From positions 199,752 through 221,114 of the forward strand of contig WELA01003305.1 in assembly GCA_009602735.1 (NCBI GenBank): DNA of 21,363 nt, given 5' to 3'. The DNA comes from Mesotaenium endlicherianum. Lineage: Eukaryota. A program made the translations under genes and the position numbers. Position 1 is the stretch's first letter, and every line of letters starts with the position of its first letter. Below are positions 1-21,363 of this stretch, piece after piece. The notes beneath the pieces were generated by a model. The model was given only the letters and a program-made list of their open reading frames with translations, had not been told where the DNA came from and did not search any database.

Positions 1-2
1 TG

Positions 3-1012: not shown

Positions 1013-1025
1013 GAGCTGGGGGGGG
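1013..1025 (+). promoter_or_regulatory. Putative polypurine tract of element A
   Basis: GAGCTGGGGGGGG directly after the integrase stop and directly before the first repeat copy. Confidence 0.6.
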
Positions 1026-1163
1026 AATTAAAACATTTGACGCTTGACTCCCTTTTTGGCCTATAAAGCCATTTGTATTATAGACTTCATTGCAGCAAAG
1101 CCTGCTTGTCCATTGTGTGTTGCTTATGTCGACAATGCGCGCCCGATCTCTTAACGCACGACA
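1026..1163 (+). repeat. Terminal repeat B1 of element A (138 bp)
   Basis: Direct repeat of 2174-2311 with about 7 mismatches. Starts AATTAAAAC and ends GCACGACA. Confidence 0.92.
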
Positions 1164-1165
1164 GC

Positions 1166-2173: not shown

Positions 2174-2311
2174 AATTAAAACATTTGACGCTTGACTCCC
2201 TTTTTGGCCTTTAAAGCCATTTGTATTATAGACTTCATTGCAGCAAAGCCTGCTTGTCTATTGTGTGTTGCTTATGCCAACAATGCGCACGTGATCTCTT
2301 AACGCACGACA
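2174..2311 (+). repeat. Terminal repeat B2 of element A (element 3' end)
   Basis: Direct repeat of 1026-1163. Its final CA abuts the interrupted RT gene. Confidence 0.92.
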
Positions 2312-2469
2312 GTGGTTCTACAAATCTCCTCCTTAGTAAAAGCAAACATCTTGCGGTGTTTCTTCAGCAACCTTTCTACTTGTGCTCTCTGCTGGGCTGA
2401 GACCATTTTTCCAATGGCAAAAGTCTCAGTTTCAGGTTGCTTCTCCCCAGCAAAGGCATCCAGTAGTTG
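2312..2469 (-). pseudogene. N-terminal stub of RT-RH-IN frame, copy 1
   Basis: QLLDAFAGEKQPETETFAIGKMVSAQQRAQVERLLKKHRKMFAFTKEEI, matching the start of the 1010-aa ORF of copy 2. Confidence 0.88.
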
Positions 2470-2472
2470 CTA
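2464..2472 (-). promoter_or_regulatory. Putative stop-codon readthrough signal UAG-CAA-CUA, copy 1
   Basis: In-frame TAG followed by CAACTA (CARYYA consensus). Identical in copy 2. Confidence 0.7.
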
Positions 2473-4323
2473 TTCCTTGGGTGCAGGTTGGGGCTTTTTG
2501 CCCTCATCCTGGCCCTCAGGCTTTTTTGCCTGATTCTGGCTCTCAGGCTTTTCTGCCTGATTCTTAGGAGGTGGGGTAGCAGGCTTTGCAGCTTGCTCCT
2601 CCGTTGCCAAAGGCTTTGCAGCCTGTTTCCTAGGCTTTTTGCCTTTCCTAATGACGCGTCGCCTCTCCTGCGGTGAGGTGTACGTCAGGCGCCTCCGGAT
2701 GGGTTGCCTCAGGAACATTTCCTCGTCGACTGCAGTCCAACTGGTCCCGGTTCCTCCTTCTTCACGTGGCCGAGGTTGGTTTGCCATTGGCCAACTTGCA
2801 AGATCTGTCCTAGGGCTGATTACCCAGCCCCACTCTTGCTCAATATTAGCCATGCGGGCGACGGTCGTGCCATACTCCTCCCTTGCGGGTGGTGTGACCG
2901 TCCATGCCTGCGTCAACGTTTGCGGCCTTTGAGGTGCCGCTAGTTGTGCGAGGAAAACATCATCTGCTGCGGTCAAGCGGCTGATGGTGTTCCCCAGATC
3001 CATCAGTTCCCATTCTGGGATTGCAGGTGTCATGGGAGCAGGTGCCTCCGACCTCTGCATCCTAAGATTTGATAGTTGCAACAAGGGCGTGTTCATGCCT
3101 GGCGGCACACTCATGCCCAGTGCCATTGCCCTGCGGATCAAGCCGTCCTCTCCCTCTCTCTGCAGAATATCCCGCAGAGGTGGAGGAGGTGGGGCTGTGG
3201 TTCCTCGCGGAACGCCCTCTCTCTGAGCCTTCCCCTTATGCTTGAAATATCGCTTTAGCATCCTCCTAAAAGATGCGTTACTCTCATGGGCCACCTACCT
3301 TGGTTTGCTTGCGCGACCCTCGGGCTTACCTTGCGCTGCCTCCACTTTAGCAGTGCAGGCAGTCACCTCCTGCCGTTGTGGCGATCGTGCGGTTGACTTG
3401 GGCTCTGCCACTGGAAGACTGGCAATAGGGGTACTGGATGTTGGTGACCTTAATTCTTCATAAATGTCTGCCGAGCTTGGCCCCATTAGGTGGTCAGCTA
3501 CCCAGTGGTCTGTCCTCAAAACCTGTAAGTCAAGCAGATTCAACTCTGGCGTGGGAAAACGTGGAATTTCTTCCCTGGCTTCCTCTCCATTGATGAGTGA
3601 TGGCAACTCAAACTCTGAGAGGCCTTGCATCTCTGCATCCTCTCCCACCTCCGGCTTCTCTGTTCCAGGAGGCGGCGATTCTTCATCCCCTCCTGTGTTG
3701 AGCCTCGCCATGTTGATGATGGCTGACTGTAGAGCGCGAGCTAATTTCGCCACTTTCTCTTCCTTGAGTCGAGGGGCGTCTGCTTCCAGCAACTGCTCCA
3801 TGATTTGCCTGGTGATCGACTCAGCTGTGCTCCCAACTGTGTCTTGTGGTTGCCCTTTGGCCTCTAGCTCTGGGCTCATCAGAACAAGTGTGGCGGGCAA
3901 TGTCTCGATCGTCTTCTTCCTGCGTTCTTCAAAATCACCTCCGGGCATGGTCTTCCCAGACCCTCCAGAATTTCTTGAATTCTGACTGCATTCTTTGGCC
4001 CATTCGCCAATATTGCACTGCCGTTCTTCATATCTTGATGTTACCGCTTCTGGGGATGGGCTCCCAAAGACCTGGTCTGGGGCCATGTTTCGTAACTCAG
4101 AACTGGTATAATCTTCCCATTCCGGCATCCTCCCAACTACCTGGCTGGAGCGTTTTGCAGATGCTGGGACCTCCTGTGATTTGCTTGCTGCAGCGCTCGC
4201 GAAAGGGTTTGCTTCACCAATTGCCTGGTCTTCCATGGCTACGTCTTCCCGCAGCCTTTGCAACTTTCTTTCCAGAGGGTCGTGTAGAGCCGTCATCCGA
4301 TTGTCAATTTGTGCCAGTAGGTC
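2470..4323 (-). pseudogene. Low-complexity P/E/S/K-rich polyprotein linker of unknown function, copy 1
   Basis: ORFs 3295-4296 and 2470-3294 are in one frame, split by TAG where copy 2 has AAG. They are also in frame with 4324-5154. Confidence 0.75.
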
Positions 4324-5615
4324 TTAACACCTGGTCAGCTCAACCACTCTGGTTTCTCTGAGTGCTTCACCTTGGTCAGCCTCAGCTGCGTCCCTTTCAA
4401 CACCATATTCTTCTTGTTGCTGATGCGCTTCCTTGATAGCTCTCTGATCAGAGATTGGCACCACATGGACTCCAATCGTTACTGGTCTCGGCCTGGGCAT
4501 AGGCTTGTCAAAGATTGTCATCTGCTGCCAAGTCATAATCGTCTCCAGCAACCACGTCATGGAGTGATGCCCAATCATATTGCCGAATATCTTCCCAGCG
4601 TCGTCCTGTCCCACCATCGCAACGATTTCTTGTGCAATGGAGTTGGGTACCCCCAGGCACCTTCCCTTCCCTTCAGCTGTCGGCTCTCTCCACTGAGCTT
4701 CTCTGTCGTGCGCATTCTTCACCATACTTGGTCCTCCATTCACGAATGCGCGTGATCCTGGGTATGCTGTGAAGGTGGGCAGCACCACCTTTGGCAGGCC
4801 TGGCTCGTTGACGACGTACTGTGGGTAGGAATCCCTCCTGATCACTGGCTTGGTTTCCACCAACAGTGCTTCTCCCACAGATACTGCCGTTGGTGTGCGC
4901 CGCGTAATCTCCTCCATCTCCCTCAGGATTTCAATGGACATGCCGTTGGTCCAGAATAGTCTGGCCTGGTGTGAGAGTCCTCCGTGCCTGGCGTCGTTGA
5001 TCAATACATGATGACCCAGGGTGGAGTCAAAGACCAGCCATGGATCTCCTTGCTTCATCTGGTTGTAATTCATCCCTGGATGTACATTCTCAATCACAAA
5101 CACTGGTGGGTAGAGATGCTGGCGTTCCCGCGGCATACCGATGATTTCCACCAACCATCCTCAGTGTTGTGCTCCCCGGGTCATTGAATCCCCTCCTGTT
5201 CCCAGTTTGCGAGAAAGGTTGACAAGGAATCCCGCAAAAAATCCAGTCAATCCTATAACCATACAAGTCCTCAGACTTCACATCGAGAATGTTTCCTCCA
5301 GCAAGACGCACCAAACTAGTAGGCACCAACGCCTTGAAATGGTACATTTGCCGCATCTGACTCTTGACCTCCTTAAATGCTGAAAGCACTCTCATCATTG
5401 TCCACATACAGCACTTTTGGTACCTGGATACCCTGCTGAATCAGTGAGATGGTTCCAGAACCAAGTCCGGCAAACAACTCCAGCACTACTACTCCTCTCC
5501 TGCGAAAAGGATCTTCCATCCTCACAATGCCTTGCGGCAGCGGGTCTACTCCATGCATCAAATTGGCAGTAGACTTAACTGCATAAGGAACTTGGCAGCA
5601 GCTCTTGCGGGCCAC
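4324..5615 (-). pseudogene. C5 cytosine DNA methyltransferase domain, frameshifted, copy 1
   Basis: ELFAGLG (I), GIPCQPFS (IV), IENV (VI), HQARLFW (VIII) and FGNM (X) are spread over three frames. Confidence 0.88.
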
Positions 5616-6657
5616 GGTCCCTGTTACTCACAGCCTCTAGTTGCTCCATAATCCAAGGTTGCCAAACCAAGGGAGTCGGCATGTTGATGCTGGTGTAGAT
5701 CTTCTCTTCGTGTTGCATGATGAGGTCATAATGGTCTGGATACTGGTCATTCACACAGCAGTCTAGCAGTCCGTAGTTTGCTTCTCCTGAGCAAACCATT
5801 TTTACAGGAATTTCTCCTGTCGGCTGCCGATCTGTCGACTGGTAAGTCACCCTCTGCTTCCGCAGGTCGATGACCATACCCAGGGGAATCAGGGCTTCTG
5901 TCCCCAAGAGAACATCATAGTTCTCTGCCTCTGTCACCGTGCATTTTATGGGCAGTGACGCCTCCTCAGGTTTCCCCAAGTTTATTGTGATTTTCACAGG
6001 CTTGCGGGTGATTCCACAAGACTTTAAAATCTGCCCAGATGCAGTCCTCAACTGAAAAGAAATTTCTTTCAGGTCCCTTGCCGTCAATCCCAGAGCTTTC
6101 ACAGCTCGCTTTCCCAAGATTACTGGCTGTGCGCCATTGTCCAATAGGATATTGGGAGCGGCCCAGTTGTTAAACGTCAAAACTCTATCCTTGTTCTGCA
6201 CTCTCACAGTGCTGAAATTAGTAGGCAGCGAAGCGCTGTTCGCGCCTTCCTCAGCATGGTCCAGCTGCTGTCCGGCTTCTTCAACCGTGAAAGGATACGT
6301 AAGACGCAGATCAACGAGTGAAAGACAAGGAATATGCTGAATCCGGTGTTCCACCAGAGCCTTCAGCTTCTCCAGCGAAAAACTAAATGTCTTGCGTGGC
6401 TCAGGCTTGGCTTGTCGTAGCTGCGCAATCTCGTTCTCATCGAGAGTGATCCAAAAGGTCTGAGGAAGCTTCTCAGCATTCCTTGGAACCAGACGGTCAT
6501 GATCTGCGCGCTCCGCAGCCGTTGCAGCCACGGCCTTCTCAGACGTCAGCTTCTCACCTTTGCAGACGGTCTTTTCGGCCACATCTGCATCATAATAGAC
6601 ATTAGGCACATTTAGTCTTGCAAATTGAGCTTTCAACTCTGCAATCTCTGCACTCAT
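5575..6657 (-). pseudogene. Retropepsin aspartic protease region, copy 1
   Basis: ILLDNGAQ (DTG in copy 2) and DVLLGTEAL. Confidence 0.85.
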
Positions 6658-8299
6658 AGCATCATACTTCTGGTTACCCTTTGGGTTACCAAATTTATCT
6701 TTTCCTTTTTCTTACCCTTATCTGCCTCTTTCGTGGCAGCATTAGCCCATGGTGGCTTCAGATTTGGGTTCTTGGACCAACACTCATCTTCTGAGTGTCC
6801 CTTTTTGCTGCAATGTGCGCATACCTGCGCCTTGCTAGCAGACAATTGCTTAGCATCCGGGTACGGACAATCTCTCTTTTGATGTCCCGATTTCCCGCAA
6901 TTCCAAGAGCCCTCTTCTGTCTCAGCAGTGTTGGCGTGCTTAGCAAACCTATTGAAAGACCCGCTCTTTTTCTTAAACTGAAAATTAGAGCTATTGGCCT
7001 TAGGCTGAAAGGATTCCTCCTTTCTCTCAGGAGCCATAAGCGTCCTGGAAGCCTCCTTGTACCAGACTTTACCTTCCTCGACATTGCGTGCTATTTCAGC
7101 AGACTCGTTGATGTTCCAATCGATTCCGCGTTTTGCAGATAGGTGCGGCCTGACCTCCCGATCTGTGTCTTTACCCAAACACAATAAGAATTTGTCAGCC
7201 ACAATCCTAGGCTCATAGATTCCTGCCTTCTTGGCAAGGTCTACCAATTTGGATTTGACCTCCATCACTGTCTCGTTCTTCTGACGGACAAAATGCACAT
7301 AGCGGTGCACCTTAAGACTGCGATCCTCTGGGAATTTTGCTTCAAGCAACTTAAAGAAACGACGCAGACAGTGCTCAGAGTCTAACTGGTCATCCCCAGC
7401 CTCCATATCCCTACGGCAACTAGCCAATGCTTGCGCATGGCTTGCTTTNCGCATGGCTTGCTTCGTGGTGGCACTATCACCATGCTACCCTGTAAAAGGT
7501 GCAGCCCTACGTGTTACTTATTCGTGAGCATTAGCAATCTTTTCAGACAATTCTGCACACACTTTACGCAATTCTGCGACAGACCCAGCATCATCATCTC
7601 GAGTAGCCGCTCGCTGCTGACCCTCGGTGAGTTGCTTCATGGCATCTGTTAATTCTTGTGTTAGTGCAGCTAAGTCTATGCTCTCAACAGGTGCAGCAGG
7701 TATCGCTCTTCCTGATGACAAAGCGGACAGGCGGGCTTTCGCAGCCTCTTTCTGAATTTTAATATCCCTCGCCTTCTTTTGCTCGTCAAACGCCCATTCC
7801 TGGGTAAGGTTCTCATCCTTCTGGAATTGGCCATAAAGCAACAAGGCATCCTTGTCCAAGTACTGAACCAAGCTTATAAAGCGAAAGACTGAGTGTAAGA
7901 AGAATCCTTTTGGATTCTCTCAAAGAAGTCAGCCCAATAGATCTCATCAAACTCTTCGAAAGTGAGACTATTTCCACCGGTTCGTCCACTAAAACACTTT
8001 GTAGACAGCTTGAACTTAGGATTTTCATCCTTATCATCACCAGTCATTTCGAACGGTGACCAAGACTCACTATCTTTACCCCACACGTCGTGCTCTCTGC
8101 CCAAATTGGGTACAAAGGCTTGCGCGTTATACGGATTCTCACCGTTCGTGGCAGTATGGCAAGACTCGTCTCCGGACGGTTGCTCACTCCACAGGTTATC
8201 CGTGCGCTCTGATGTCTCACTTCCTCGTGGACTCTGGCTTGAATCAGAACCTTCCGCAGGCTCCACAGGGTAGTAGAGTCTTCCACTCCTCAACCGCAT
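6654..8299 (-). pseudogene. gag: Gag with zinc knuckles, frameshifted, copy 1
   Basis: MRLRSGRLY start and CAHCSKKGHSEDEC knuckle. The first knuckle has C-to-S. The frame is broken near 7875, 7518 and 7449. Confidence 0.82.
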
Positions 8300-8908
8300 G
8301 TACAGTTGAATTTCTCCGGATCCCCTTCCAGGTTGAGCACCGGCAGCCCTCACAGGCCTCAATCCCCAATTTGCTTGGGAATTTCTATTCACCTGAATTA
8401 CAGAACCGAGGTTCTCAGAAGTAGGATGGAAGTCTCTTACTTCCACATAGGCTTTATGCCTTAAGGTTCTTGGGTTCACAGGCGAGCAAATTGTAGTTTG
8501 CAAAACACTCTAAGCAGCTTGACATACAACGTCAGATTCAGAGAAAATCGCCCTTCAGGCTTTCGCTTAACTTTCACAAAGTCACAGCTTACAAAACTCT
8601 GAAACTACACGTCTATGCTGGCCTGGGTCAAGCTCTTCACTTAACACCGCGCCTTAACAGTTCTTCACTGCCAGGCTAGGCTCACTCATTTCTTCACTGA
8701 GAGCCTTATCTGCCAATACTACCCTCTCTCTTCGAGATGCGAATGCGACTTCTAAGAACCTGGAAACTAACACACAACTCATCATTTTAAGGCTGCTTCA
8801 CACACACTTGTGGCGTTCGGCCAAATCTGTGCTAATCTCCTAGCAGATTCTATTCTGCAGTTTTCCTACTTTCAACAGTGAGATTCCCTTTTGGGAACTC
8901 CTACAATC

Positions 8909-9127
8909 CTAACTTATCTTCGATACACTAAGAAGAATCTTCAGCGTCGGCAGAAGCGTGGGGCCTCGGCTCTCCAATGGCCTTGGGAACTCCTTCTTCT
9001 TCTTCGCGCCCTTCTTCTCCTTCCTTCTGCTCTTTCTGCTCCTTCTGCTTCTTGGCAAAAGTGCGTGAGAGTGAATAACATGTCTCAGGCAAGATTCGTG
9101 CCTTCCGCAGGCACCACACAGCGTCAT
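8909..9127 (-). CDS. Possible small Cys/His- and Lys/Arg-rich upstream ORF, copy 1
   Basis: ATG start, CGACGRHESCLRH, basic tract. The frame is open in both copies. Confidence 0.25.
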   Translation of the reverse strand: MTLCGACGRHESCLRHVIHSHALLPRSRRSRKSRRKEKKGAKKKKEFPRPLESRGPTLLPTLKILLSVSKIS

Positions 9128-9723
9128 CTTTCGAGAATGGCGTGCTTAGTCACAAAGCTTAGCTTCATGTCGCTTCTTCCTAGCCATGCTCAACTCAAAC
9201 TCGTAGTCACTCGGCATGCATGCACACCTCGTGACTGTCGCTTCTCAGCTGGCAGTCACGCCTAATTGGCTCGTGGCTAAGAACTCCTGAGCGGCGTGTA
9301 CAAGCAAATGCCCCTTGCTCAAGATTCCCAACCGGGCGGCCGTAACCTATCTTGGCATTGCGGCCATGACCTGGCTTAATCTGCCAGTCACACAGTATCT
9401 GACTTGGTACCTGCTGGGCAACTCATCACTGATCCCCAACTTCTAGCCTCGCGGCTGTCTATGATGTCAAAACCTCCCCCATCCCTGGGTGTGGGGCACA
9501 TTGACATTGACCCCTTGCCAGTGGTCTTGACGCCGACATAACCACTGACTGCGACGTAATCAGTCAAGTGGTCGGTGAGTCAACGTTGACTTTCCGAACC
9601 TGGATGGCCGTAGCTTGCGCTGCGTGTGCGGCACCGTCAAACGGATAGTAGTCGCGACACCAATTCTATACCGTAGTATATACCTACCTCTATTATATTC
9701 TACCACATTAATTAATATATCTC

Positions 9724-9727
9724 ATCA
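9724..9727. repeat. 4-bp target site duplication ATCA (left)
   Basis: ATCA|TGTCGTG at 9724-9734 and CGCGACA|ATCA at 20288-20298. Confidence 0.75.
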
Positions 9728-10023
9728 TGTCGTGCCTAACAGTGTCGGTCCCTCGGCACGTGCGTAGCCTTCCAGCACGTGTGCCTTCGGCCTGGTTGAT
9801 GTGTCGGTGGCCCTCCTGACGTGTGGCAGACATGGTCGATCGACCTTTGCACGTGTGTTGGTGACAAGCCTTACCAGGGTTAACCCATCCCTGGGTTCCT
9901 GAACTTGCACCATGCAGCCTTGACCAACACTCAGGGTGACGTTCTCTGTCACCCGGCTCTCACCATCTGCTTATCCTAAGACTTTAGCAGAAAATTTTAA
10001 AAAATACTTGCCTTGCCTTAATT

Positions 10024-10044
10024 CCTCTTACACCCTTCCCTTTC
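10024..10044 (-). promoter_or_regulatory. Putative polypurine tract of element B
   Basis: Minus strand GAAAGGGAAGGGTGTAAGAGG, overlapping the integrase stop and followed by AATTAA as in element A. Confidence 0.6.
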
Positions 10045-13000
10045 AGCTGAGGCGTCCCTGCCTTTCCTGCTGAAAGCTATTATTTTCCAGCCCTGCGGCT
10101 AGGGGTTTAGGAAGGCAATCAGGACATTCCCATCGTCCTGCCATAATTTCTTCCTCGCCAATGCAGAAAGTGTGCCAACGGGCACCACACTCGTCGCAAG
10201 TTACCATTGCTTCCTGATCGTCCAGCACTTTGCACCTGGCACAAGGCGTGGCCGGCACCAATTCCTCGGGCACCACCCTAACTGTGGGATCAATATTCGG
10301 CAAATGGCATAGCGAGCAATTCTGCACGTGGTCTCTCATGGTTTTACCATCAAAACCTTCCAGTTCTAACACACCATTGTCAAACGCATGTTTCACGCGC
10401 AAGATCACTGCACCTGAACTGGTGTCGATGGTGGTCTTGGTCTGGCGCTTGCGGTAGACAAAGTCTCCTTCTTGTATCCGCGTCATCTGCAGGCGGTAGC
10501 TCCCGTCTCGCGTCCTAGCGTAACGTTGCGTATCTCTTTTCTGTGCAATTTTCAGATTGACTAGTGCAGCCGGTATCATGCGTTCAAATAACGCCTTACG
10601 GCGCACCATCACTTTTAACAGTTCATCAGGGCTGTCCAGGTCTTTCACCTGTTCAATCTCCTGCTTGATGCTGCTGGGCACTACTGGACTTCTGCCAAAC
10701 AGTATCTGATATGGCGAGTAATTTGCCAAGGCAGCCTGCTTGCTAAATCTGTAACCCATAACCAGCCATGGCAGGGCTAGATCCCAGTCACGCTTGTCAT
10801 GCTCAAGGCAAAACTTGCGCAAAGCAGACTTAATGGTTTGCACCATCCTTTCTGCCAGACCATCTGCTTGCGGATGATCTCTAGACGTAGTGCGATGATC
10901 GATGAAGCATCTGTCCAAGAGTTTCTGAAAAGACCCTTGGAACTCAGACCCTTGGTCTGTCAGCACTTCTGCTGGAGCTCCATGACGCACAATCACACCA
11001 TTGAGGAATGCTTCCGCGGTCCCTAGGCTTTCCTTAGCAGTCAGAGGGACAACCTCTATCCACTTAGAGAAATGCTCAATCATGACCATGATATACTTGT
11101 TACCTTGCTTAGACAGCGGTAGCTCACCTGCGAGATCGCAGCTCCAACGGTAACCTAGGCCCATGATTGGCAAATGTTGCAAGTGTAGGTGTTGCTGCGT
11201 AAAACCAGCCTTGACGCGATCACAGCTTTGGCAAGCCTTGATCACATCTTCACACTGCTGCTTCATGCCCCTCCACCAGTAAGACAGCTCCAAAAGACTA
11301 TATGTCTTCTTGACACCATAGTGTCCAGTGTTCTTGTGCATTTCTTGCACAAGGGCTCGTCCTTTGATGGGTTCTGGCACTAACTTCTCCTGACCAGTTT
11401 CTTCAATTCTGAAGAGGTTGTTGCATTTCCAGCAAAACCTTTTAGCTCGATGGTTTACCTGGTCCTTCTCCTTCACTGATAGTCCTTCCAAGTGAGTTCC
11501 CGTCTTAAGCCAGTGCATAGTAGCTTGATCTTTCCAGATCTCTGTACTGAACAGGGGTAGAGGCTCAGCTTCACCTGATGCTACTATTCCAGCCATTTCG
11601 GCTAGGCAAGCCACCAACTCTGCTGGGCTGCTCGGGTCTTCGTCCTCTCGAGCTCCTGTTCTGTCGTCTGAAGATGGGTCTGGGTTCCTGCTGAGTCCAT
11701 CGGCGTCGTTGTTGAGCACTCCTGCTCTGTGCACCACCGTCATTTGGTACTCTTGCAGCTTAAGAGCCCAGCGAGCCAACTTACCAGTGAGGTCTCCATT
11801 CTTCATCAGCCATAGTAATGGTGAGTGATCCGTGATCAGTGTGAAGGGTCTTCCCCACAGATACTCTCTGAAGTGTGTGACCGCCCAAACCACTGCCAGC
11901 AGCTCTCCTTCATAGGACGAGTAGTTGCTCTCCGCTCGATTGTTAGAGCGTGAGGCATAGGCAATGACATACTCCTCTCTAGGGCTTGTGGCCTGAGTGA
12001 GTACTGCGCCAATTCCCACACGACTCCAGTCAGTGTGCATATTGAACGGTTTGGAGTAGTCAGGCGTTCGCAAGACTGGGGCTGTTACCAGCCGCTTCTT
12101 AAGCTCGTTCATGGCTTTCTCCTGAGCTTCTGTCCACACAAAAGGTACATCCTTTTTCAGGAGTTCCGTAAAGGGTTTAGCAATTCTGCTATAATCCTTC
12201 ACAAACTTACGATAGTATCCGCTTAGCCCTAACAGAGCTTTCAGCTTAGACACATTCGCAGGTGCAGGTATCTTGTAAATAGCCTCAGTCTTCACAGCCT
12301 GAGGGGACATAGCATTGTTCCCAATCTCATGTCCTAGGTAAGGCACGTGTGCCTCAAAGATTTTGCACTTCCCAGGATGCAGCTTCATCTGGAATTTCTC
12401 CAGGCGCTGGAACACTTGTTCCAAGTGCTCGAGGTGCTCCTCTATGGACTTGCTGAATACTACCACATCGTCTATGTATGGCTTAGCGAAATCCAGCCCC
12501 TCTAGCACTTTATCCATAGTCCTCTGAAATATGGCTGGGGCATTTTTCAGCCCAAATGGCATTACTGTCCATTGCCAAAGTTCCCTTTGAGCCCAAAAAG
12601 CAGTTTTACCTCGATCTTCTGTTTTCACAAGGATCTGGTTGAAGCCTTGGCGCAGATCGATAATGCTGAACACCTTTCCGGTGGTGGCAATTACAAAGAT
12701 CCGTTCCGGCGTAGGCATCACATAGCTATCCGGCTCCGTGTAGAGATTCAGTCGCCTGTAATCTCCACACATACGAGTGGCAGTGTAATTGCCGGCCTCG
12801 TCCTTTTTAGTGACTACTATTGTAGGAGCTCCATGTATTGAGGTAGATTTTTCAATCATGCGGAGCTTATGCAGCTCTTCACAAGTGTTCTCCACACAGT
12901 CCCATTCTGTCTGACTGAGCTTATGCGGCCCTAGTCTGATTGGGTTATCAGTAGTTAGTGTGATCTCACACGCACTGGCAGTGGTTCCACCAATCTCCTC

Positions 13001-13138
13001 CTTAGTGAAAGCAAATACCTTGCGGTGTTTCTTCAGCAACCTTTCTACTTGTGCTCTCTGCTGGGCTGAGACCATTTTCCCAATGGCAAAAGTCTCAATT
13101 TCAGGTTGCTTCTCCCCAACAAAGGCATCCAGTAGTTG
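10043..13138 (-). CDS. pol: Pol: reverse transcriptase - RNase H - DDE integrase - PHD finger (open frame)
   Basis: RT: CGDYRRLN, IDLRQGFNQI, MPFGLKNAP, YIDD (about 12467-12478). RNase H: TDWS, YEGELLA, TDH, DADGLSR. Integrase: H-H-C-C, CDLAG, TDQGSEF, AERM. PHD C4HC3 at 10115-10243. First ATG at 13075, but the frame is open from 13138. Confidence 0.96.
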   Translation of the reverse strand, partial: QLLDAFVGEKQPEIETFAIGKMVSAQQRAQVERLLKKHRKVFAFTKEEIGGTTASACEITLTTDNPIRLGPHKLSQTEWDCVENTCEELHKLRMIEKSTSIHGAPTIVVTKKDEAGNYTATRMCGDYRRLNLYTEPDSYVMPTPERIFVIATTGKVFSIIDLRQGFNQILVKTEDRGKTAFWAQRELWQWTVMPFGLKNAPAIFQRTMDKVLEGLDFAKPYIDDVVVFSKSIEEHLEHLEQVFQRLEKFQMKLHPGKCKIFEAHVPYLGHEIGNNAMSPQAVKTEAIYKIPAPANVSKLKALLGLSGYYRKFVKDYSRIAKPFTELLKKDVPFVWTEAQEKAMNELKKRLVTAPVLRTPDYSKPFNMHTDWSRVGIGAVLTQATSPREEYVIAYASRSNNRAESNYSSYEGELLAVVWAVTHFREYLWGRPFTLITDHSPLLWLMKNGDLTGKLARWALKLQEYQMTVVHRAGVLNNDADGLSRNPDPSSDDRTGAREDEDPSSPAELVACLAEMAGIVASGEAEPLPLFSTEIWKDQATMHWLKTGTHLEGLSVKEKDQVNHRAKRFCWKCNNLFRIEETGQEKLVPEPIKGRALVQEMHKNTGHYGVKKTYSLLELSYWWRGMKQQCEDVIKACQSCDRVKAGFTQQHLHLQHLPIMGLGYRWSCDLAGELPLSKQGNKYIMVMIEHFSKWIEVVPLTAKESLGTAEAFLNGVIVRHGAPAEVLTDQGSEFQGSFQKLLDRCFIDHRTTSRDHPQADGLAERMVQTIKSALRKFCLEHDKRDWDLALPWLVMGYRFSKQAALANYSPYQILFGRSPVVPSSIKQEIEQVKDLDSPDELLKVMVRRKALFERMIPAALVNLKIAQKRDTQRYARTRDGSYRLQMTRIQEGDFVYRKRQTKTTIDTSSGAVILRVKHAFDNGVLELEGFDGKTMRDHVQNCSLCHLPNIDPTVRVVPEELVPATPCARCKVLDDQEAMVTCDECGARWHTFCIGEEEIMAGRWECPDCLPKPLAAGLENNSFQQERQGRLS

Positions 13139-13141
13139 CTA
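13133..13141 (-). promoter_or_regulatory. Putative stop-codon readthrough signal UAG-CAA-CUA, copy 2
   Basis: TAG at 13139-13141 is in frame with pol, 21 codons before the ATG at 13075, in CARYYA context. Confidence 0.7.
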
Positions 13142-15040
13142 CTCCTTAGGTGCAGGTGGGGGCTTCCCGCCCTCATCCTGGCCCTCATGCTTTTCTGCCT
13201 GATTCTGGCTCTCAGGCTTTTCTGCCTGATTCTTAGAAGGTGGGGTAGCAGGCTTTGCAGCTTGCTCCTCCGTTGCCATAAGTTCGGCAGCCTGTTTCTT
13301 AGGCTTTTTACCTTTTCCAATGACGCGTCGCCCCTTGCGGTGAGGGGTATGTCAGGCGCCTCCGGATGGGCTGCCTCAGGAACATTTCCTCGTCGATTGC
13401 AGTCCAACTGGTCCCGGTTCCTCCTTCTTTACGTGGCCGAGGTTGGGTAGCCATTGGAAAACCTGCGGGGTCTGTCCTAGGGCTGATCGCCCAGCCCCAT
13501 TCTCGCTCAATAATAGCCATGCGGGCGACGGTCGTGTTATACTCCTCCCTTGCGGGTGGTGTGACCATCCATGCCTGCGCCAATGTTTGCGGCCTTTGAG
13601 GTGTTGCTAGTCGTGCGAGAAAGGCATCATCTGCTGCGGTCAAGCGGCTGATGGTGTTTCTCTGATCCATCAGTTCCCATCCTGGGATTGCAGGTATTAT
13701 GGGAGCAGGCTCCTTCGACCTCTGTATCCTAAGATCTGATAGTTGCAACAAGGGCGTGTTCATGCTTGGCGGCACACCAATGCCCAATGCCATTGCCCTG
13801 CGAACCAAACCGTCCTCTCCCTCTCTCTGCAGAATATCCCGCAGGGGCGGAGGAGGTGGGGCTGTGGTTCCTCGCGGAACGCCCTTTCTTTGAGCCTTCC
13901 CTTTATGTTTGAAATATCGCTTTAGCATCCTCCTAAAAGATGCGTTACCCTCACGAGCCTCCTTCCTTGGTCTGCTTACGCGACTTTCGGGCTTTCCTCG
14001 TGCTGTCTCCACTTTAGCAGTGCAGGCAGTCACCTCCTGCTGTTGCGGCGATTGTGCGGCTGACTTGGGTTCTGCCACTGGAAGACTGGCAGAAGGAGAA
14101 CTGGATGTTGGCGACCTTAATTCTTCATAAAGGTCTGCTGGGCTTGGCCCCATCAGGTGGTCAGCCACCCAGTCGTCTGTCCTCAGCTCCTGTAAGTCAA
14201 GCAGATCCAACTCTGGCGTGGGAAAACGTGGAATTTCTTCCCTAATGTCCCCTTCATTGTTGAGTGATGGCAACTCCAACTCCGAGAGGCCTTGCATCTC
14301 TGCATCCTCTTCCTCCTCCGGCTTCTCTATTCCAGGAGGCGACAATTCTTCATCCCCTCCTGTGTTGAGCCTCGCCATGTTGATGATAGCTGACTGTAGA
14401 GCGAGAGCTGCTTTTGCCACTTTTTCGAGGGGCGTCTGCTTCCAGCAACTGCGCCATGATTTGCCTGGTGATTGACTCAGCTGTGCTGCCAACTGTGTCT
14501 TGTGGTTGCCCTTTGGCCTCTGGCCCTGGGCTCATCCGAGCAAGTGTGGCGGGCAATCTCTTGGCCGCCTCCTTCTTGTGTTCTTCAAAAATCACCTCCA
14601 GGCAAATGGTCATTCTAGACCCTCCAGAATTTCCTGAATTTTGACTGCATTCTTCGGCCCATTTGCCAATATTGCACTGGCGTTCTTCATATCTTGATGT
14701 TACCGCTTTTGGGGATGGGCTCCCGGAGACCTGGTCTGGGGCCATGTTTCGTAACTCAGAACTGGTATAATCTTCCCATTTCGGCATCCTCCCAACTACC
14801 TGGCTGGAGCGTTCTGCAGATGCTGGGACCTCCTGTGATTTGCTTACTGCAACGCTCACCAAAGGGTTTGCTGCACCAGTTGCCTGGTCTTCCATGGTTA
14901 CATCTTCTCGCAGCCTCCGCAACTCTCTTTCTAGAGGGTCGTGTAGAGCCGCCATCCGAGTGTTAATTCACGTCAATATGTCTTGACACCTGGTCAGTCC
15001 CACCACTCTGGCTTCTCTGAGTGTTTCCTCTTAGTCAACC
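13139..15040 (-). pseudogene. Low-complexity linker region, copy 2 (frameshifts and stops)
   Basis: Homologous to 2470-4380. Indels near 13333, 14425 and 15050, and stops near 14968 and 15031. Confidence 0.75.
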
Positions 15041-17752
15041 TCAGCTGCGTCTTTCAACAGCATATTCTTTTTGTCGCTGATACGCTTCCCTCATAGCTCT
15101 CTGATCAGAGGTTGGCACCACATGAACTCCAATCGCTACCGGCCTCGGCCTGGGCATAGGCTTGTCAGAGAACGTCATCTGTTGCCAAGTTATAATCGTC
15201 TCTACCAACCATGTCATGGACTGATGCCCAATCATATTGCCGAACATCTTCCCAGCGTTGTCCTGTCCCACCTTTGCAACAATTTCTTGTGCAATGGAGC
15301 TGGGTACCCCCAGGCACCTTCCCTTCTCTTCAGCTGTCGGCTCTCTCCACTGAGCTTCTCTGTTGTGCACATCTTTGACCATTCCTGGCCCTCCATTCAC
15401 GAAAGCGCGTGATCCTGGGTATGCTGTGAAGGTGGGCAACACCATTCTCGGCCGGCCTGGCTTGTTGACGACGTACTGTGGGTAGGAATCCCTCCTGATC
15501 ACTGGCTTGGTTTCCACCAACAGTGCTTCTCCCACAGATACTGCCGTTGGTGTGCGCCGCGTAATCTCCTCCATCTCCCTCAGGATTTCAATGGACATGC
15601 CGTTGGTCCAAAATAGTCTGGCCCGGTGTGAGAGTCCTCCGTGCCTGGCGTCGTTGATTAATACATGATGACCCAAGGTGGAGTCGAAGACCAGCCATGG
15701 ATCTCCTGGCTTCATGTGGCTGTAATCCATCCCTGGATGTACATTCTCAATCACAAACACTGGTGGGTAGAGATGCTGGCGTTCCCGCAGCATAATGATG
15801 ATCTTCACCATCCTTCCCCAGTGTTGTGCTCGCGGGTCATTGAATCCCCTCCTGTTCCCAGCTTGCGAGAAAGGTTGACAAGGGAATCCCGCAAAAATCC
15901 AGTCAATCCTGTAATCATACAGGTCGTCAGACTTCACATCGAGAATGTTTCCTCCAGCAAGACGCACAACACTAGTGGGCACAAATGCCTTGAAATGGTA
16001 CATTTGCCGCATCTGACTCATGGCCTCCTCAAATGCTGTAATAACATTCTCATCATTGTCCACATACAGCACTTTGGATACTCGGATACCTCGCTGAATC
16101 AGTGTGATGGTTCCAGTACCAAGTCCGGCGAACAATTCCAGCACTACTATTCCTCTCCTGCGAAAAGGATCTTCCATCCTCACAATGCCTTGCGGCAATG
16201 GGTCTACTCCAGGCATCAAATTGGCAGCAGTCTTAACAGGATAAGGAACTGGCAGCAGCTCTTGCGGGCCACGGTCCCTGTTACTCACAGCCTCTAGTTG
16301 CTCCATAATCCAAGGTTGCCAAACCAAGGGAGTCGGCATGTTGATGCTGGTGTAGATCTTCTCTTCGTGTTGCATGATGAGGTCATGATGGTCTGGATAC
16401 TGGTCATTCACACAGCAGTCTAGCAATCCGTAGTTTGCTTCTCCTGAGCAAACCATTTTTACAGGAATTTCTCCTGTTGGCTGCCGATCTGTCGACTGGT
16501 AAGTCACCCTCTGCTTCCGCAGGTCGATGACCATACCTTGGGGAATCAGAGCTTCTGTCCCCAATAGAACATCATAGTTTCCTGCCTCTGTCACCGTACA
16601 GTCTATGAACAGTGACGCCTCCTCAGGTTTCCCCAAGTTTACTGTGATTTCCACAGGCTTGCGGGTGATTCCACAAGACTTTGAAATCTGCCCAGATGCA
16701 CTCCTCAACTGGAAAGGACTTTCTTTCAAGTCCCTGGCCGTCAATCCCAGAGCTTTCACAGCTCGCTTTCCCAAGATTACTGGCTGTGCGCCAGTGTCCA
16801 ATAGGATATTGGGAGCGGCCCAGTTGTTAAACGTCAAAATTCTATCCTTGTTCTGCACTCTCACAGTGCTGAAATTAGTAGGCAGCGAAGCGCTGTTCGC
16901 GCCTTCCTCAGTTAGGTCCAGCTGCTGTCCGGCTTCCTCAATCGTGAAAGGATATGTAAGACGCAGATCAGCGAGTGAAAGACAAGGAATGTGCTGAATC
17001 CGGTGTTCCACCAGAGCTTTCAGCTTTTCCAGCGAAAGACTAAATGTGTTGCGTGGCCCAGGCTTGGCTTGTCGTAGCTGCGCAATCTCGTGCTCATCGA
17101 GAGTGATCCAAAAGGTCTGAGGAAGCTTCCCAGCATTCCTTGGAACCAGACGGTCATGATCTGCGCGCTCCGCAGCCGTTGCAGCCACGACCTTCTCAGG
17201 CGTCAGCTTTTCGCCTTTGCAGACGGTCTTTTCGGCCACATCTGCATCATAATAGACATTAGGCACATTTAGTCTTGCAAATTGAGCTTTCAATTCTGCA
17301 ATCTCTGCACTTATAGCATCATACTTCTGATTACCCTTCCGGTTACCAGAGTTATCTTTCTCCTTTTTCTTAGCCTTATCTGCCTCTTTCGTGGCAGCAT
17401 TAGCCCATGGTGGTTTCAGATTTGGGTTCTTGGACCAACACTCATCTTCTGAGTGTCCCTTTTTACTGCAATGTGCGCATACCTGCGCCTTGCTAGCAGA
17501 CAATTGCTTAGCATCCGGGTACGGACAATCTCTCTTCTCATGTCCTGATTTCTCGCAGTTCCAACAGCCCTCTGCTGTCTCAGCAGTGTTGGCGTGCTTA
17601 GCAAACCTATTGAAAGACCCGCTCTTTTTCTTAAACAGAAAGTTAGAGCTATTGGCCTTGGGCTGAAAGGATTCCTCCCTTCTCTCAGGAGCCATAAGCG
17701 TCCTAGAAGCCTCCTTGTACCAGACTTTACCTTCCTCGACATTGCGTGCTAT
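15041..17752 (-). CDS. Polyprotein segment: two CCHC knuckles, aspartic protease, C5 cytosine methyltransferase (about 15200-16150)
   Basis: CWNCEKSGHEKRDC, CAHCSKKGHSEDEC; LLDTGAQ; ELFAGLG (I), AGFPCQPFSQAG (IV), IENV (VI), HRARLFW (VIII), RCLGVP (IX), FGNM (X). Confidence 0.93.
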   Translation of the reverse strand: MARNVEEGKVWYKEASRTLMAPERREESFQPKANSSNFLFKKKSGSFNRFAKHANTAETAEGCWNCEKSGHEKRDCPYPDAKQLSASKAQVCAHCSKKGHSEDECWSKNPNLKPPWANAATKEADKAKKKEKDNSGNRKGNQKYDAISAEIAELKAQFARLNVPNVYYDADVAEKTVCKGEKLTPEKVVAATAAERADHDRLVPRNAGKLPQTFWITLDEHEIAQLRQAKPGPRNTFSLSLEKLKALVEHRIQHIPCLSLADLRLTYPFTIEEAGQQLDLTEEGANSASLPTNFSTVRVQNKDRILTFNNWAAPNILLDTGAQPVILGKRAVKALGLTARDLKESPFQLRSASGQISKSCGITRKPVEITVNLGKPEEASLFIDCTVTEAGNYDVLLGTEALIPQGMVIDLRKQRVTYQSTDRQPTGEIPVKMVCSGEANYGLLDCCVNDQYPDHHDLIMQHEEKIYTSINMPTPLVWQPWIMEQLEAVSNRDRGPQELLPVPYPVKTAANLMPGVDPLPQGIVRMEDPFRRRGIVVLELFAGLGTGTITLIQRGIRVSKVLYVDNDENVITAFEEAMSQMRQMYHFKAFVPTSVVRLAGGNILDVKSDDLYDYRIDWIFAGFPCQPFSQAGNRRGFNDPRAQHWGRMVKIIIMLRERQHLYPPVFVIENVHPGMDYSHMKPGDPWLVFDSTLGHHVLINDARHGGLSHRARLFWTNGMSIEILREMEEITRRTPTAVSVGEALLVETKPVIRRDSYPQYVVNKPGRPRMVLPTFTAYPGSRAFVNGGPGMVKDVHNREAQWREPTAEEKGRCLGVPSSIAQEIVAKVGQDNAGKMFGNMIGHQSMTWLVETIITWQQMTFSDKPMPRPRPVAIGVHVVPTSDQRAMREAYQRQKEYAVERRS

Positions 17753-18943
17753 TTAAGCAGCCTCGTCGATGTTCCAGTCGATTCCGCGTTTCGCAAATAG
17801 GTGCGGCCTGACCTCCCGATCTGTATCTTTACCCACACACAATAAGAATTTGTCAGCCACAATCCTAGGCTCATAGATTCCCGCCTTCTTGGCAAGGTCT
17901 ACCAATCTAGATTTGACCTCCATCACTGTCTCGTTCTTTTGACGGACAAAATGCACATAGCGGTGCACTTTAAGACTGCGATCCTCTGGGAATGTTGCTT
18001 CAAGCAATTTAAAGAAACGACGCAGACAGTGCTCAGAGTCTAACTGGTCATCCCCAGCCTCCATATCCCTACGGCAAATAGCCAATGCTTGCGCATGGCT
18101 TGCTTCCGTGGTGACACTATCACCATGCTGCCCTGTAAAAGGTGCAGCTCTGCGTGTTACTCGTTCCTGGGCATTAGCAATCTTTTCAGACAATTCTGCA
18201 CACACTTTACGCAATTCTGCGACAGACCCAGCATCATCATCTCGAGTAGCCGCTCGCTGCTGACCCTCGGTGAGTTGCTTCATGGCATCTGTTAATTCTT
18301 GTGTTAGTGCAGCTAAGTCTACGCTCTCAACAGGTGCAGCAGGTATCGCTCTTCCTGATGACAAAGCGGACAGGCGGGCTTTCGCAGCCTCTTTCTGGAT
18401 TTTCAAATCTCTCGCCTTCTTTTGCTCGTCAAACGCCCATTCCTGGGTAAGGTTCTCATCCTTCCGAAATTGGCGATACAGCAACAAGGCATCCTTGTCC
18501 AAGTACTGAACCAAGCTTATAAAAGCGACTGACTGAGTGTAAGAAGAATCCTTTCGGATTTTCTCAAAGAAGTCAGCCCAATAGATCTCATCAAACTCTT
18601 CGAAAGTGAGACTATTTCCACTGGTTCGTCCACTAAAACACTTTGTAGACAGCTTGAACTTAGGATTTTCATCCTTATCATCACCAGTCATTTCGAGTGG
18701 TGACCAAGACTCACTATCTTTATCCCACACGTCGTGCTCTCTGCCCGAATTGGGTACAAAAGCTCGCGCGTAATACGGATTCTCACCGTTCGTGGCAGTA
18801 TGGCGAGACTCGTCTCTCGACGGTTGCTCACTCCACAGGTTATCCGTATGCTCAGATGTCTCACTTTCTCGTGGACTCTGGCTTGAATCAGAACCTTCCG
18901 CAGGCTCCACAGGGTAGTAGAGTCTTCCACTCCTCAACTGCAT
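17753..18943 (-). pseudogene. gag: Gag N-terminal/capsid region, copy 2, cut from the downstream ORF by one nonsense codon
   Basis: First ATG at 18943 (MQLRSGRLY). TAA at 17753-17755 corresponds to GAA in copy 1, and the frame is the same as 15041-17695. Confidence 0.82.
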
Positions 18944-19546
18944 GTACAGTTGAATTTCTCCGGGTCCCCTTCCAGGTTGAGCACCGGTAGCCCTCACAGG
19001 CCTCAATCCCCAATTTGCTTGGGAATTTCTATTCACCTGAACCACAGAACCCAGGTTCTCAGAAGTAGGACGGAAGTCTCTTACTTCCACATAGGCTTTA
19101 TGCCTTAAGGTTCTTGGGTTCACAGGTGAGCAAATTGTAGTTTGCAGAAATCACACTCTAAGCAGCTTGACATGCAACGTCAAATTCAGAGAAAATCGCC
19201 CTTCAGGCTTTTGCTTAACTTCCACAAGTCAGCTTACAAAACTCTGAAACTACGTCTATGCTGGCCTGGGTGAAGCTCTTCACTTAACACCGCGCCCTAA
19301 CAGCTCTTCACTGCCAGGCTGGGCTCACTCAGTTTTTCACTGAGAGCTTTATCTGTCAATACTACTCTCTCTCTTCGAGATGCGAATGCGACTGCCGAGA
19401 ACCTGGAAATCAACACACTACTCACCATTTTAAGGCTCCTTCACACACACACACTTGTGGCGTTCGGCTGACTCTGTGCTAATCTCCTAGCAGATTCTAT
19501 TCTGCACTTCTCCTTCTTCAACCGTGAGATTCCCTCTTGGGAACTC

Positions 19547-19753
19547 CTACAATCCTAACTTATCTCTGATACACAGAAGAATCTTCAGCGTTGTCAGAAG
19601 CGTGGGGCTTTGGCCCTCCAATGGCCTTGGGAACTCCTTCTTCTTCTTCGCGCCCTTCTTCTCTTTCCTTTTGCCTCTTGGCAAAGGTGCGTGAGAGTGA
19701 ATGACATGTCTCAGGCAAGATTCGTGCCTTTCGCAGGCACCACACAGCATCAT
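19547..19753 (-). CDS. Possible small Cys/His- and Lys-rich upstream ORF, copy 2
   Basis: MMLCGACERHESCLRH...KRKEKKGAKKKKE, homologous to 8909-9127. Confidence 0.25.
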   Translation of the reverse strand: MMLCGACERHESCLRHVIHSHAPLPRGKRKEKKGAKKKKEFPRPLEGQSPTLLTTLKILLCIRDKLGL

Positions 19754-20294
19754 CTTTCGAGAATGCCGTGCTTAGTCACACAAGTTAGCTGCATGTCGCT
19801 TCTGCCTAGCCATGCTCAACCCAAACTTGTAGTCATTCAGCATGCATGCACACCTTGTGACTGTCGCGCGTGACTGCTTAGCTTCTCAGCTGGCAGTCAC
19901 GCCTAATTGGCTCATGGCTAAGGATTCCTGAGCGGCGTGCAAGCAAATGCCACCTGCTCAAGTTTTCCCAACCGGGCGGCCGTAACCTATCTTGGCATTG
20001 CAGCCATGACCTGGCTTAATCTGCCAGTCACACAGTACCTGACCTGGTACTTGCTGGGCGGCTCATTGCTGATCCCCAGCTCCTAGCCTCGCGGCTGTCT
20101 TGTCAAAACCTCCCCCATCCTTGGGTGTGGGGCACACTGACATTGACCCCTTGCCAGTGGTCTTGACGCCGCCATAACCGCTGACTGCGATGTAATCAGT
20201 CAAGTGGTCGGTGAGTCAAGGTCGACTTTCAGCACTAGGTGGCCGTAGCTTGCGCTGCGCGTGCGACACCGTCAAACGGATAATAGTCGCGACA

Positions 20295-20298
20295 ATCA
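20295..20298. repeat. 4-bp target site duplication ATCA (right)
   Basis: Matches 9724-9727. Confidence 0.75.
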
Positions 20299-20869
20299 TC
20301 CTCATTAATTGTGAATTTCCCTAAGTTCAAACCTGATTTGCTCGAAGTCGGACGATCGCAGACCATAAAAAACTGGCCGCCTGCACGCGACGAGGCGCTG
20401 CACGCCTGTACGCAGACAACAGCAGACAACAGTGTACCACTCGCCACTCGCGATATATTCGTACATTACCGTACGAAACTTTGTTTGCCTCGGGCATTTT
20501 CACAGCATTCGCCACAAAATGGACGGCGTTTCAGGCTTCAGCCCATGCCTCTTGCCTCGTACTCGATCCTCACGTGGTCCCTTCGTGCATCTTGAACTCG
20601 CTGCATGCTTCTCTCAGCCCAAGAGTACGAATTTCAAGTTAAGGAACTTTGTTATCGCTCTAGAATCAATTGATATGCGTGCATTAGCACGCATCTATGC
20701 AAAAACCCAATTTTTATGAGAAGCTCCAAGCCATGTCGGGTCTAACCATTCTGGTGCTTTTGTGTAGCATCGTGATCTTTGCAATCTTGCCCATTCATGG
20801 AGTCAGCGACGATGGTAAGGCATTTCACGCCTTCGACACTCCTGCTATACTCGAAATCACTTCTCATAG

Positions 20870-21070
20870 CCCGCTGCCTTATCCACCCGTGGAAAAACCT
20901 CTACATTACTACATTGTGCTCTTTGCTTGCTGGCGGGTCAACCCTGTGGGAACCATCTCACATGATTTCCCGCACACAGTCCTTCTCTTGCCGCTGGAGC
21001 AAAAACTCCAGGTGCGCTCTGAACTTATGCGACACTGACGTCGTCGTGGACCGTCTCACTAAGATTTCCT
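20870..21070 (+). pseudogene. Possible highly decayed Gypsy integrase relic of a different family
   Basis: TISHDF (about 20952-20969) and DVVVDRLTKI (21037-21066), in different frames, resemble the W..ISMDF...VVVDRLTK integrase signature. Confidence 0.4.
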
Positions 21071-21235
21071 GCTTGATGTTGTTCTCTCCTAGCAGCTGGA
21101 GTTCAGATTCCGGACGCGTTCAGACCTGCTGCCAGCCTCATGTACGCCAAAGTGACTGAGCCTACCCTGGACACGCCTCACCTGGAAGGTGACTTCTGAA
21201 TGCTTCTACATGAGCACCCCTGCATTTGGGATTAA

Positions 21236-21275
21236 CACGACTTCATATGACGTCACACGATTTCACACGACTTCA
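21236..21275 (+). repeat. 10-bp tandem repeat x4 (CACGACTTCA consensus)
   Basis: CACGACTTCA TATGACGTCA CACGATTTCA CACGACTTCA. Confidence 0.75.
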
Positions 21276-21331
21276 CTCAATTGCTTATTAGACAACGACC
21301 AGACTAAAGTATAGTGTGCGCGTATGTCTGT

Positions 21332-21363
21332 GGGGTGGGGTGAGGGGTGCGGGTTGGGGGGGG
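21332..21363 (+). other. G-rich tract with G-quadruplex potential
   Basis: Five runs of three or more G with short spacers, cut by the window edge. Confidence 0.45.

Follow-up and report, generated by a model that had tools for sequence, protein, structure and literature searches.

A Ty3/Gypsy retrotransposon of Mesotaenium endlicherianum carries, in frame after its protease, a complete C5 cytosine methyltransferase domain that is related to DNMT3 by sequence profile and modelled fold. The element lies in a stretch of 21,363 nucleotides (GenBank assembly GCA_009602735.1, contig WELA01003305.1, positions 199,752 to 221,114 of the forward strand; hereafter the window) and occurs there as two head-to-tail minus-strand copies with 93% identity over aligned columns by self-BLAST. 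In copy 2, a minus-strand open frame of 903 amino acids (17752-15041) encodes zinc knuckles, a protease and, as had been claimed in an original prediction made from the sequence of the window, the full methyltransferase. Its statement that retrotransposons bearing such enzymes are rare, yet known, also holds (de Mendoza et al. 2018, PMC5890265, as far as the accessible text goes), and what it missed was that copy 2 is dead, that the enzyme is related to DNMT3, that the ends of the element are odd and that both copies share a leaky-looking stop. Transposons bearing their hosts' own silencing enzyme are known from few lineages. The class is not new; the additions made here are its breadth, two positions of the domain within the polyprotein, a self-priming geometry with split repeats and a possible readthrough site. 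In active members of the family the methyltransferase would be packaged with Gag and would, on a slight balance of probability, methylate the element's own complementary DNA (cDNA) before integration. The domain itself is located as follows:

15170-16150, minus strand: DNMT3-related C5 cytosine methyltransferase, motifs I-X, with the catalytic cysteine codon at 15880-15878

A search with PF00145, which the original prediction had suggested along with a phylogeny and a comparison of nonsynonymous and synonymous substitution rates (dN/dS), matches amino acids 537-672 of the open frame (E=5e-17; 62.7-65.6 bits against a curated cut-off of 22). Motif numbers follow the usage of the C5-methyltransferase literature, and the motifs stand in order: I (16144-16118), II (16069-16052), III (15955-15935), IV with its Pro-Cys (15895-15857), VI with Glu-Asn-Val (15760-15740), VII-VIII with both arginines (15661-15602), a target-recognition region at about 15600-15350, IX (15349-15302) and X (15256-15215). 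The Pfam match spans motifs I-VI only, and motifs IX and X were placed from an alignment with 63 homologues and from an AlphaFold model. The core catalytic residues (FxGxG, Pro-Cys, Glu-Asn-Val, Arg-x-Arg and Gly-Asn) are all kept. With those 63 homologues in its alignment the model of the domain reached a predicted local distance difference test score (pLDDT) of 92.1 and a predicted template modelling score (pTM) of 0.90, and without an alignment a pLDDT of 31.6. Foldseek assigned the model to the class I methyltransferase fold (E 1e-15; template modelling scores 0.64/0.77 to DNMT3B).

The affinity of the enzyme depends on how it is searched for. Compared as a single sequence with solved structures, the domain prefers M.HaeIII (3e-8, against 0.01 for DNMT3B), and its catalytic loop is like those of M.HaeIII and M.HhaI. 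Word-index protein searches returned only stand-alone enzymes, with 26-50% identity over short stretches and mostly near 30%, and one further search gave one match; the top two Atlas clusters are viral, with a Streptophyta-dominated cluster third (score 0.96). Such observations, together with the place of the domain as first branch after a bacterial outgroup in the tree described below, would fit a recent and independent capture of a bacterial or phage restriction-type methyltransferase. That reading is very improbable and already largely refuted. The word-index searches missed the retroelement family, which an exhaustive search recovered with 1,124 clusters at E<=0.001 and 213 clusters (at 50% identity) at E<=1e-10; Gypsy-DNMT3 elements thus reach well beyond a single alga. 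Retroelement-borne homologues match the whole domain with values up to 4e-37, the best of the search, whereas stand-alone enzymes reach 1e-10 at best. Among the best 150 homologues, 97 also contain retroelement domains, the enzyme lying on the RNase H/integrase side in 80 and on the protease side in 17, and 53 consist of the enzyme alone; a Pfam check of six homologues confirmed the domain orders of P0065 and of P0077/P0108. A profile built from 64 members of the family finds DNMT3A first (1e-24), followed by DNMT3C and DNMT3B, DRM (3e-13), M.HhaI (1e-10) and M.HaeIII (2e-7). Likewise, Foldseek places DNMT3A, DNMT3B and DNMT3C at ranks 1-12 and 14, with M.HaeIII at rank 15 and DNMT3 above M.HhaI. 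The domain has the DNMT3-type His-Arg-x-Arg-x-Phe-Trp-x-Asn and a short target-recognition region, and it occupies the same position as in the sister family defined by reverse transcriptase (RT). A bacterial origin was rejected on the exhaustive search, the family profile and the Foldseek ranking taken together, and the enzyme, small and compact and without accessory domains, is by profile and predicted fold DNMT3-related, though its catalytic loop looks bacterial.

Phylogenies were built for the domain and for its carrier. A FastTree analysis of the domain comprised 140 rows (the window, 119 homologues with at least 250 aligned residues and 20 bacterial-type enzymes; 31 shorter homologues were dropped), and the domain trees contain no named DNMT3 reference sequences. 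All 74 of the RNase H/integrase-side domains group together (0.977) in a clade that lies within the protease-side ones, and the window domain forms a long first branch after the bacterial outgroup, with a weak root. By contrast, in a tree of RT and RNase H (51 rows) all eight protease-side elements, the window included, form one clade (1.0), which the matching domain tree lacks. The basal place of the window domain is probably long-branch attraction. Judged from these sequence comparisons, the enzyme belongs to a DNMT3-related family borne by Gypsy elements and has evolved fast within it.

The element that carries the enzyme is laid out below, where A and B are repeat parts, ORFs the open reading frames and PPT the polypurine tract:

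9728-20294, minus strand: copy 2, a Ty3/Gypsy insertion, complete but decayed, that spans 10,567 bp with the layout A-ORFs-PPT-B
2313-9659, minus strand: copy 1, which belongs to the same family and breaks off where RT begins, with its methyltransferase frameshifted at about 5500-4520
17756-18943, minus strand: Gag-like region of copy 2, named from its position, with a likely start codon at 18943 and a match to the Gag region of homologue P0095
17438-17569, minus strand: two CCHC-type zinc knuckles
16490-16831, minus strand: retropepsin protease with Asp-Thr-Gly at 16798 (PF13975, PF13650, PF08284)
10043-13138, minus strand: RT, RNase H, integrase and PHD finger, 1,031 codons free of stops (PF00078, PF17917, PF17921, PF00665, PF00628)
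1-2312, plus strand: right end of a related PHD-integrase Gypsy element, the only part of it within the window, inserted into copy 1 at the RT start

No Pfam family matched the Gag-like region, and the knuckles match PF00098 weakly in copy 2 (E=0.14, amino acids 62-77) and with 7e-5 in copy 1. The protease (amino acids 315-402; E=9e-6) scores 26.6 bits, slightly below the cut-off of 28.2. Ty3/Gypsy hallmarks are present in the order protease - RT - RNase H - integrase, the polypurine tract, TG...CA ends and a target duplication; missing are two full long terminal repeats (LTRs) as terminal direct repeats, of which copy 2 has none and in place of which relatives have split repeats.

Whilst the original prediction was right that copy 2 carries the domain in frame after the protease, the copy is not functional. 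Its Gag and zinc knuckles are separated by a TAA in frame at 17755-17753, a stop that copy 1 lacks, and an indel of 2 bases lies near 15051, just past the methyltransferase domain; a polyprotein from the Gag start is therefore impossible, and copy 2 is a dead element, like copy 1. In the latter, indels in or just before the methyltransferase (near 5593, 5389, 5241/5227 and 5177) bear out the frameshift that had been predicted, one invariant motif-VIII arginine is gone, and a single frame, broken by two private stops, extends over 5163-2472. With the exception of one stop before RT that both copies share, all breaks are private to one copy, and the family frame can therefore be read as Gag, knuckles, protease, methyltransferase and about 650 orphan codons, followed in frame by RT, RNase H, integrase and PHD finger.

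Copy 1 also has an assembly N and a 15-base duplication at 7449-7463, probably a gap artefact. A blemish of this kind is what could be cited for a chance fusion, a nested host gene or an assembly artefact as the source of the methyltransferase, an explanation that is scarcely credible, given two 93%-identical copies with no intron and unbroken domain borders, contigs from runs with two organism labels that cover 30 of 30 and 29 of 30 bins, and the same domain order in 29 related loci. Run X1 has 10,575 contigs that map to the element (depth there does not stand for copy number), and in public runs at least 0.2 of the sequence words are found in each of 11 rows, which bear four organism labels and come from five studies.

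Selection on the domain was estimated between the two copies and among relatives. When the copies are compared, the domain has a dN/dS of 0.46 (325 codons, p=0.0017), Gag one of 0.40 and the protease region one of 0.52, and the block of motifs IX-X gives 0.32 (p=0.04); by this measure purifying selection acts on the domain to about the same degree as on Gag. Scanning metagenomes with the RT-integrase frame found 80 loci of 40-56% identity, which come from repeated assemblies and represent one family, not independent cases. The domain lies upstream of RT in 36 of the 37 loci with at least 1,500 nt there, with the protease ahead of it in 29, and in none of the 80 does it lie between RNase H and integrase. 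Pairwise comparison of 12 related loci, a duplicate having been removed (66 pairs), gives a dN/dS of 0.41 for the domain against 0.42 for RT. Relatives L030, L031, L037, L046, L048, L050, L054, L060 and L064 have insertions of about 830 bp, which lie in the integrase tail, in RNase H or in the linker between protease and methyltransferase and may represent a further small mobile element.

The ends of the element depart from those of an ordinary Gypsy insertion. Copy 2 runs from TGTCG at 20294 to CGACA at 9728 and is flanked by a 4-bp duplication (ATCA at 9724-9727 and 20295-20298); no terminal direct repeat was found in it, and its part B showed no similarity to part A or to the upstream flank beyond that of shuffled sequences. 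Its terminal features are as follows:

19067-20294, minus strand: repeat part A, the 5' end of the element and putatively the downstream part of an LTR; a second copy of A starts at 9659
9728-10043, minus strand: polypurine tract (10043-10033), after the integrase stop, and ahead of repeat part B (10032-9728; 305 bp, TGT...ACA)
19051-19066, minus strand: predicted self-priming primer-binding site, directly 3' of A

Two kinds of junction occur in the X1 contigs: 9659/20294 is joined to 9728 with two letters between (B-NN-A), and the end of A (19064-19070) is joined to the start of B (10029-10032) in several imprecise variants. The neighbouring element shows the order PPT - B - GC - A - B directly at 1026-2312. 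The layout of the family is accordingly one of split repeats without paired LTRs, A-ORFs-B-NN-A-B, of which copy 2 itself has the shorter form A-ORFs-B. A tolerant pattern finds the B-NN-A joint in 35 of the 62 related loci with sufficient sequence downstream, 33 of which also have a second B, and a strict one in 20 of 62, the other loci being decayed, truncated or of other subfamilies. A first A is present in 14 of 17 related loci with enough upstream DNA, and B stands ahead of it in 0 of 14, on which ground B alone was rejected as an ordinary LTR. Nine related elements with both ends have a 4-bp duplication, exact in five, with three of four letters in three and two of four in one.

The predicted primer site is complementary to 19406-19391 within A at 14 of 16 positions in copy 2 and 13 of 14 in copy 1, and at 16 of 16 with the letters that dominate X1 depth at 19394 and 19396. 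Stretches of 13-16 nt that could pair with a place within A lie directly 3' of the first A in four of five full-length relatives and in both window copies. Priming at this site and at the polypurine tract would make the cDNA terminate where A ends and B starts, which is the imprecise A-B joint, and yet the ends of integrated elements fall at the internal B-NN-A site. For this reason, integration from a circle through that internal site is the simplest reading; retroviral integrases are described as cutting LTR-LTR junctions (PMC1180852, PMC1905944, in their accessible text). One must consider, on the other side, that the circle step is deduced from end geometry alone. In a literature search to which subscription journals were mostly closed, no work was found that explains the split repeats or describes Gypsy-DNMT3 elements in bryophytes.

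Between the methyltransferase and RT lie two further features:

13133-13141, minus strand (copy 1: 2472-2464): TAG-CAA-CTA, the sole stop common to both copies and a candidate readthrough site just before RT
13142-15170, minus strand (copy 1: 4520-2473): orphan region of about 650 codons

The readthrough consensus of tobacco mosaic virus (TMV) type, UAG-CAR-YYA (PMC3159437, accessible text), is fitted exactly by TAG-CAA-CTA in both copies, and the same 3' context occurs at 10 of the 2,905 codon positions of copy 2. On this sequence match readthrough is somewhat more likely than not. What speaks against it is that relatives are without such a signal, such that the shared TAG may be decay, and that at least 13 of 41 rows have a stop in common at a single glutamine codon ahead of RT; a common stop can therefore arise from decay driven by methylation or from shared descent. 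The window candidate differs from the TMV case, as that paper describes it, in following not Gag but protease, methyltransferase and orphan region, and no paper among those searched was found to link CARYYA readthrough with retrotransposons. The orphan region matched nothing in Pfam or among the fetched proteins and loci, and in the Atlas one 342-amino-acid piece gave leads of at most 0.81 and no usable match. It contains indels near 15051, 14606, 14591, 14426 and 13335 and a TGA at 14970 in copy 2, and in copy 1 forms a single frame interrupted by two stops of its own; dN/dS of 0.56 and 0.81 in two blocks points to weak constraint, and the gap between methyltransferase and RT is only about 140 codons in relatives. 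A 27-bp repeat (2492-2564, 13189-13233) also lies in this region.

The proposed cycle of an active element may be set out in four steps: 1) one long first open reading frame would be translated, with RT-integrase made through leaky readthrough of TAG-CAA-CTA, and the protease would free the methyltransferase within the particle; 2) reverse transcription, self-primed beside A and primed by the polypurine tract beside B, would yield cDNA of the form (B-NN-A)-ORFs-(B-NN-A); 3) the cDNA would close into a circle, and the integrase, perhaps steered by the PHD finger, would use the internal CGACA-NN-TGTC site, a two-LTR circle giving A-ORFs-B-NN-A-B and a one-LTR circle or later B-B recombination giving A-ORFs-B, as in copy 2; 4) the enzyme would methylate the double-stranded cDNA or the circle de novo, most likely at CG, and new copies would arrive already bearing a host-type mark. 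The CG preference is probable by analogy with two SymbioDIRS-Dnmt3 domains, which methylate CG de novo in yeast (PMC5890265, accessible text). A bolder extension, which we put forward tentatively and as the less probable case, is a widespread green-lineage Gypsy clade that is self-priming and integrates circular cDNA through an internal LTR site, so resembling DIRS with a DDE integrase, and in which an active DNMT3 methylates the circle; in the window family, a leaky stop of TMV type would set methyltransferase far above RT in each particle, and an orphan protein of 650 residues would be made besides.

The enzyme might instead act in trans or at the target, methylating the insertion site, other elements or element RNA and not the cDNA. 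Readthrough at the shared TAG, if real, would put synthesis of the enzyme on a par with Gag, leaving it more abundant than RT and not tied to it; moreover, a PHD-finger integrase suggests chromatin targeting, and the clustering of three Gypsy insertions in the window suggests targeting to their own kind or to heterochromatin. Action in trans nevertheless seems improbable to us: 80 of the 97 homologues whose neighbour is known have the domain on the RNase H/integrase side, and in related loci it is in frame with RT, which favours action on cDNA. With regard to the cluster, copies 2 and 1 lie only 68 bp apart (9660-9727, AT-rich). The third insertion, at 1-2312, consists of an integrase/PHD tail, a polypurine tract, B1 (1026-1163), GC, A (1166-2173) and B2 (2174-2312); it belongs to a second PHD-integrase Gypsy family, with a coding tail of 61% guanine-cytosine content and an integrase tail that is frameshifted before the PHD finger. 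The flank at 20295-21363 is without a long frame and has an observed-to-expected CpG ratio of 0.92, that is, no depletion.

A number of observations weigh against methylation of cDNA by an active enzyme. Firstly, six positions of motifs III, VIII, IX and X that are well conserved across the family are altered in the domain: asparagine replaces the motif-III aspartate (found in 51 of 57 homologues), serine the alanine (58 of 62) before the motif-VIII His-Arg, Lys-Gly the motif-IX Arg-Glu (50 and 54 of 59), and alanine and glycine the arginine (47 of 53) and aspartate (46 of 53) of motif X. Secondly, the branch to the window is 2.0 long for the domain against 0.57 for RT. Thirdly, the Gypsy enzyme of Klebsormidium gave no methylation in yeast, a result its authors call inconclusive (PMC5890265, accessible text). 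Fourthly, dN/dS of 0.4-0.5 is weak, with selection mixed with decay after the death of the copies. Finally, poly(A) reads and base composition, described below, give the proposal little help.

Several of these points would suit a domain retained as a weakened or non-catalytic fold, serving in DNA or RNA binding, as a spacer or as a targeting part, which we regard as unlikely. Most of the near-invariant positions changed are changed in both copies, the window domain is the longest branch in the domain trees, the Klebsormidium enzyme was inactive in yeast and glutamate replaces the motif-IV proline in many relatives; set against this are the full complement of core catalytic residues, the confident full fold and the purifying selection that extends to the IX-X block. 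The glutamate belongs to a variant catalytic loop, Gly-Trp-Glu-Cys-Gln, seen in 31 of 58 aligned homologues (P0057-P0204, related loci included).

Two poly(A) runs of one study, of which about 6% and 12% were read, gave 40 and 143 reads, mostly in part A, and in the same two libraries almost none cover the methyltransferase domain. Reads at 18986-20400 are at a low level, confined to part A and, assuming that strandedness of the libraries is standard, mostly in element sense; many continue into unrelated sequence, which suggests A fragments inside other transcripts. CpG is depleted to 0.60 in the element and equally in the neighbouring element (0.60-0.71), and CpG depletion was rejected as a trace of self-methylation on account of this lack of specificity. 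Transitions between the copies affect 77 of 509 CG sites (15%), 77 of 761 CHG (10%) and 144 of 2,023 CHH (7%), and host silencing accounts for their excess at CG and CHG, in keeping with plant-type methylation in an alga or early land plant.

Comparison with known systems, in each case as described in the accessible text of the source, places the family within a small group of retrotransposons that bear C5 methyltransferases; it stands out in having the domain at two different polyprotein places, accompanied by a repeat layout that points to circle integration. The EpiLTRs of Euglena gracilis and Cymbomonas tetramitiformis likewise belong to Ty3/Gypsy and combine a cytosine methyltransferase with a domain that reads chromatin, but their enzyme is a sister of DNMT4 with a Dam domain and a chromodomain, whereas the window family has a DNMT3-type enzyme and a PHD finger (bioRxiv 10.64898/2026.05.21.726589). 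Neither a Dam domain nor a chromodomain was found by Pfam in the 10 frames scanned, the EpiLTRs are stated by the same source to be distinct from streptophyte Gypsy-DNMT3, and the window element is not an EpiLTR. Self-priming in place of a tRNA primer (Tcn1), as predicted for the window family, is described for Tf1/Sushi/Tcn1 (PMC6317226), and a PHD finger in a green-lineage Gypsy polyprotein for Chlamydomonas Gypsy-7a_cRei (bioRxiv 10.1101/2022.06.16.496473); unlike the window family, both have paired LTRs and no methyltransferase mentioned in the text available, and Tcn1 has a chromodomain. SymbioDIRS-Dnmt3 and SymbioLINE-Dnmt of Symbiodinium share a retrotransposon-borne C5 methyltransferase with the window family, the former also being Dnmt3-type with split repeats, yet they move by a tyrosine recombinase or a long interspersed element (LINE) endonuclease and not by a DDE integrase, and their authors consider the methyltransferase captures independent (PMC5890265).

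The closest counterpart is KnitGypsy-Dnmt3 of Klebsormidium nitens, a Gypsy element whose Dnmt3-related domain is divergent, lacks introns and is under purifying selection, and whose name occurs in one paper, PMC5890265, of the literature searched; no other description of Gypsy-DNMT3 elements was found, in a search that mostly did not extend to subscription journals. No named Klebsormidium protein was among the protein-search matches to the domain, and the likeness is one of described features. As in the window family, the intronless domain sits in a Gypsy polyprotein and is under purifying selection, and the repeats are DIRS-like, in the order A-coding-B-A-B according to the legend of Fig. 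4c. The accessible text neither explains them nor mentions self-priming or an internal attachment site. The two designs part company in the polyprotein: in KnitGypsy-Dnmt3 the domain shares one open reading frame with RT and RNase H, whereas in the window family some 650 orphan codons and the shared stop stand between them, in the same frame.

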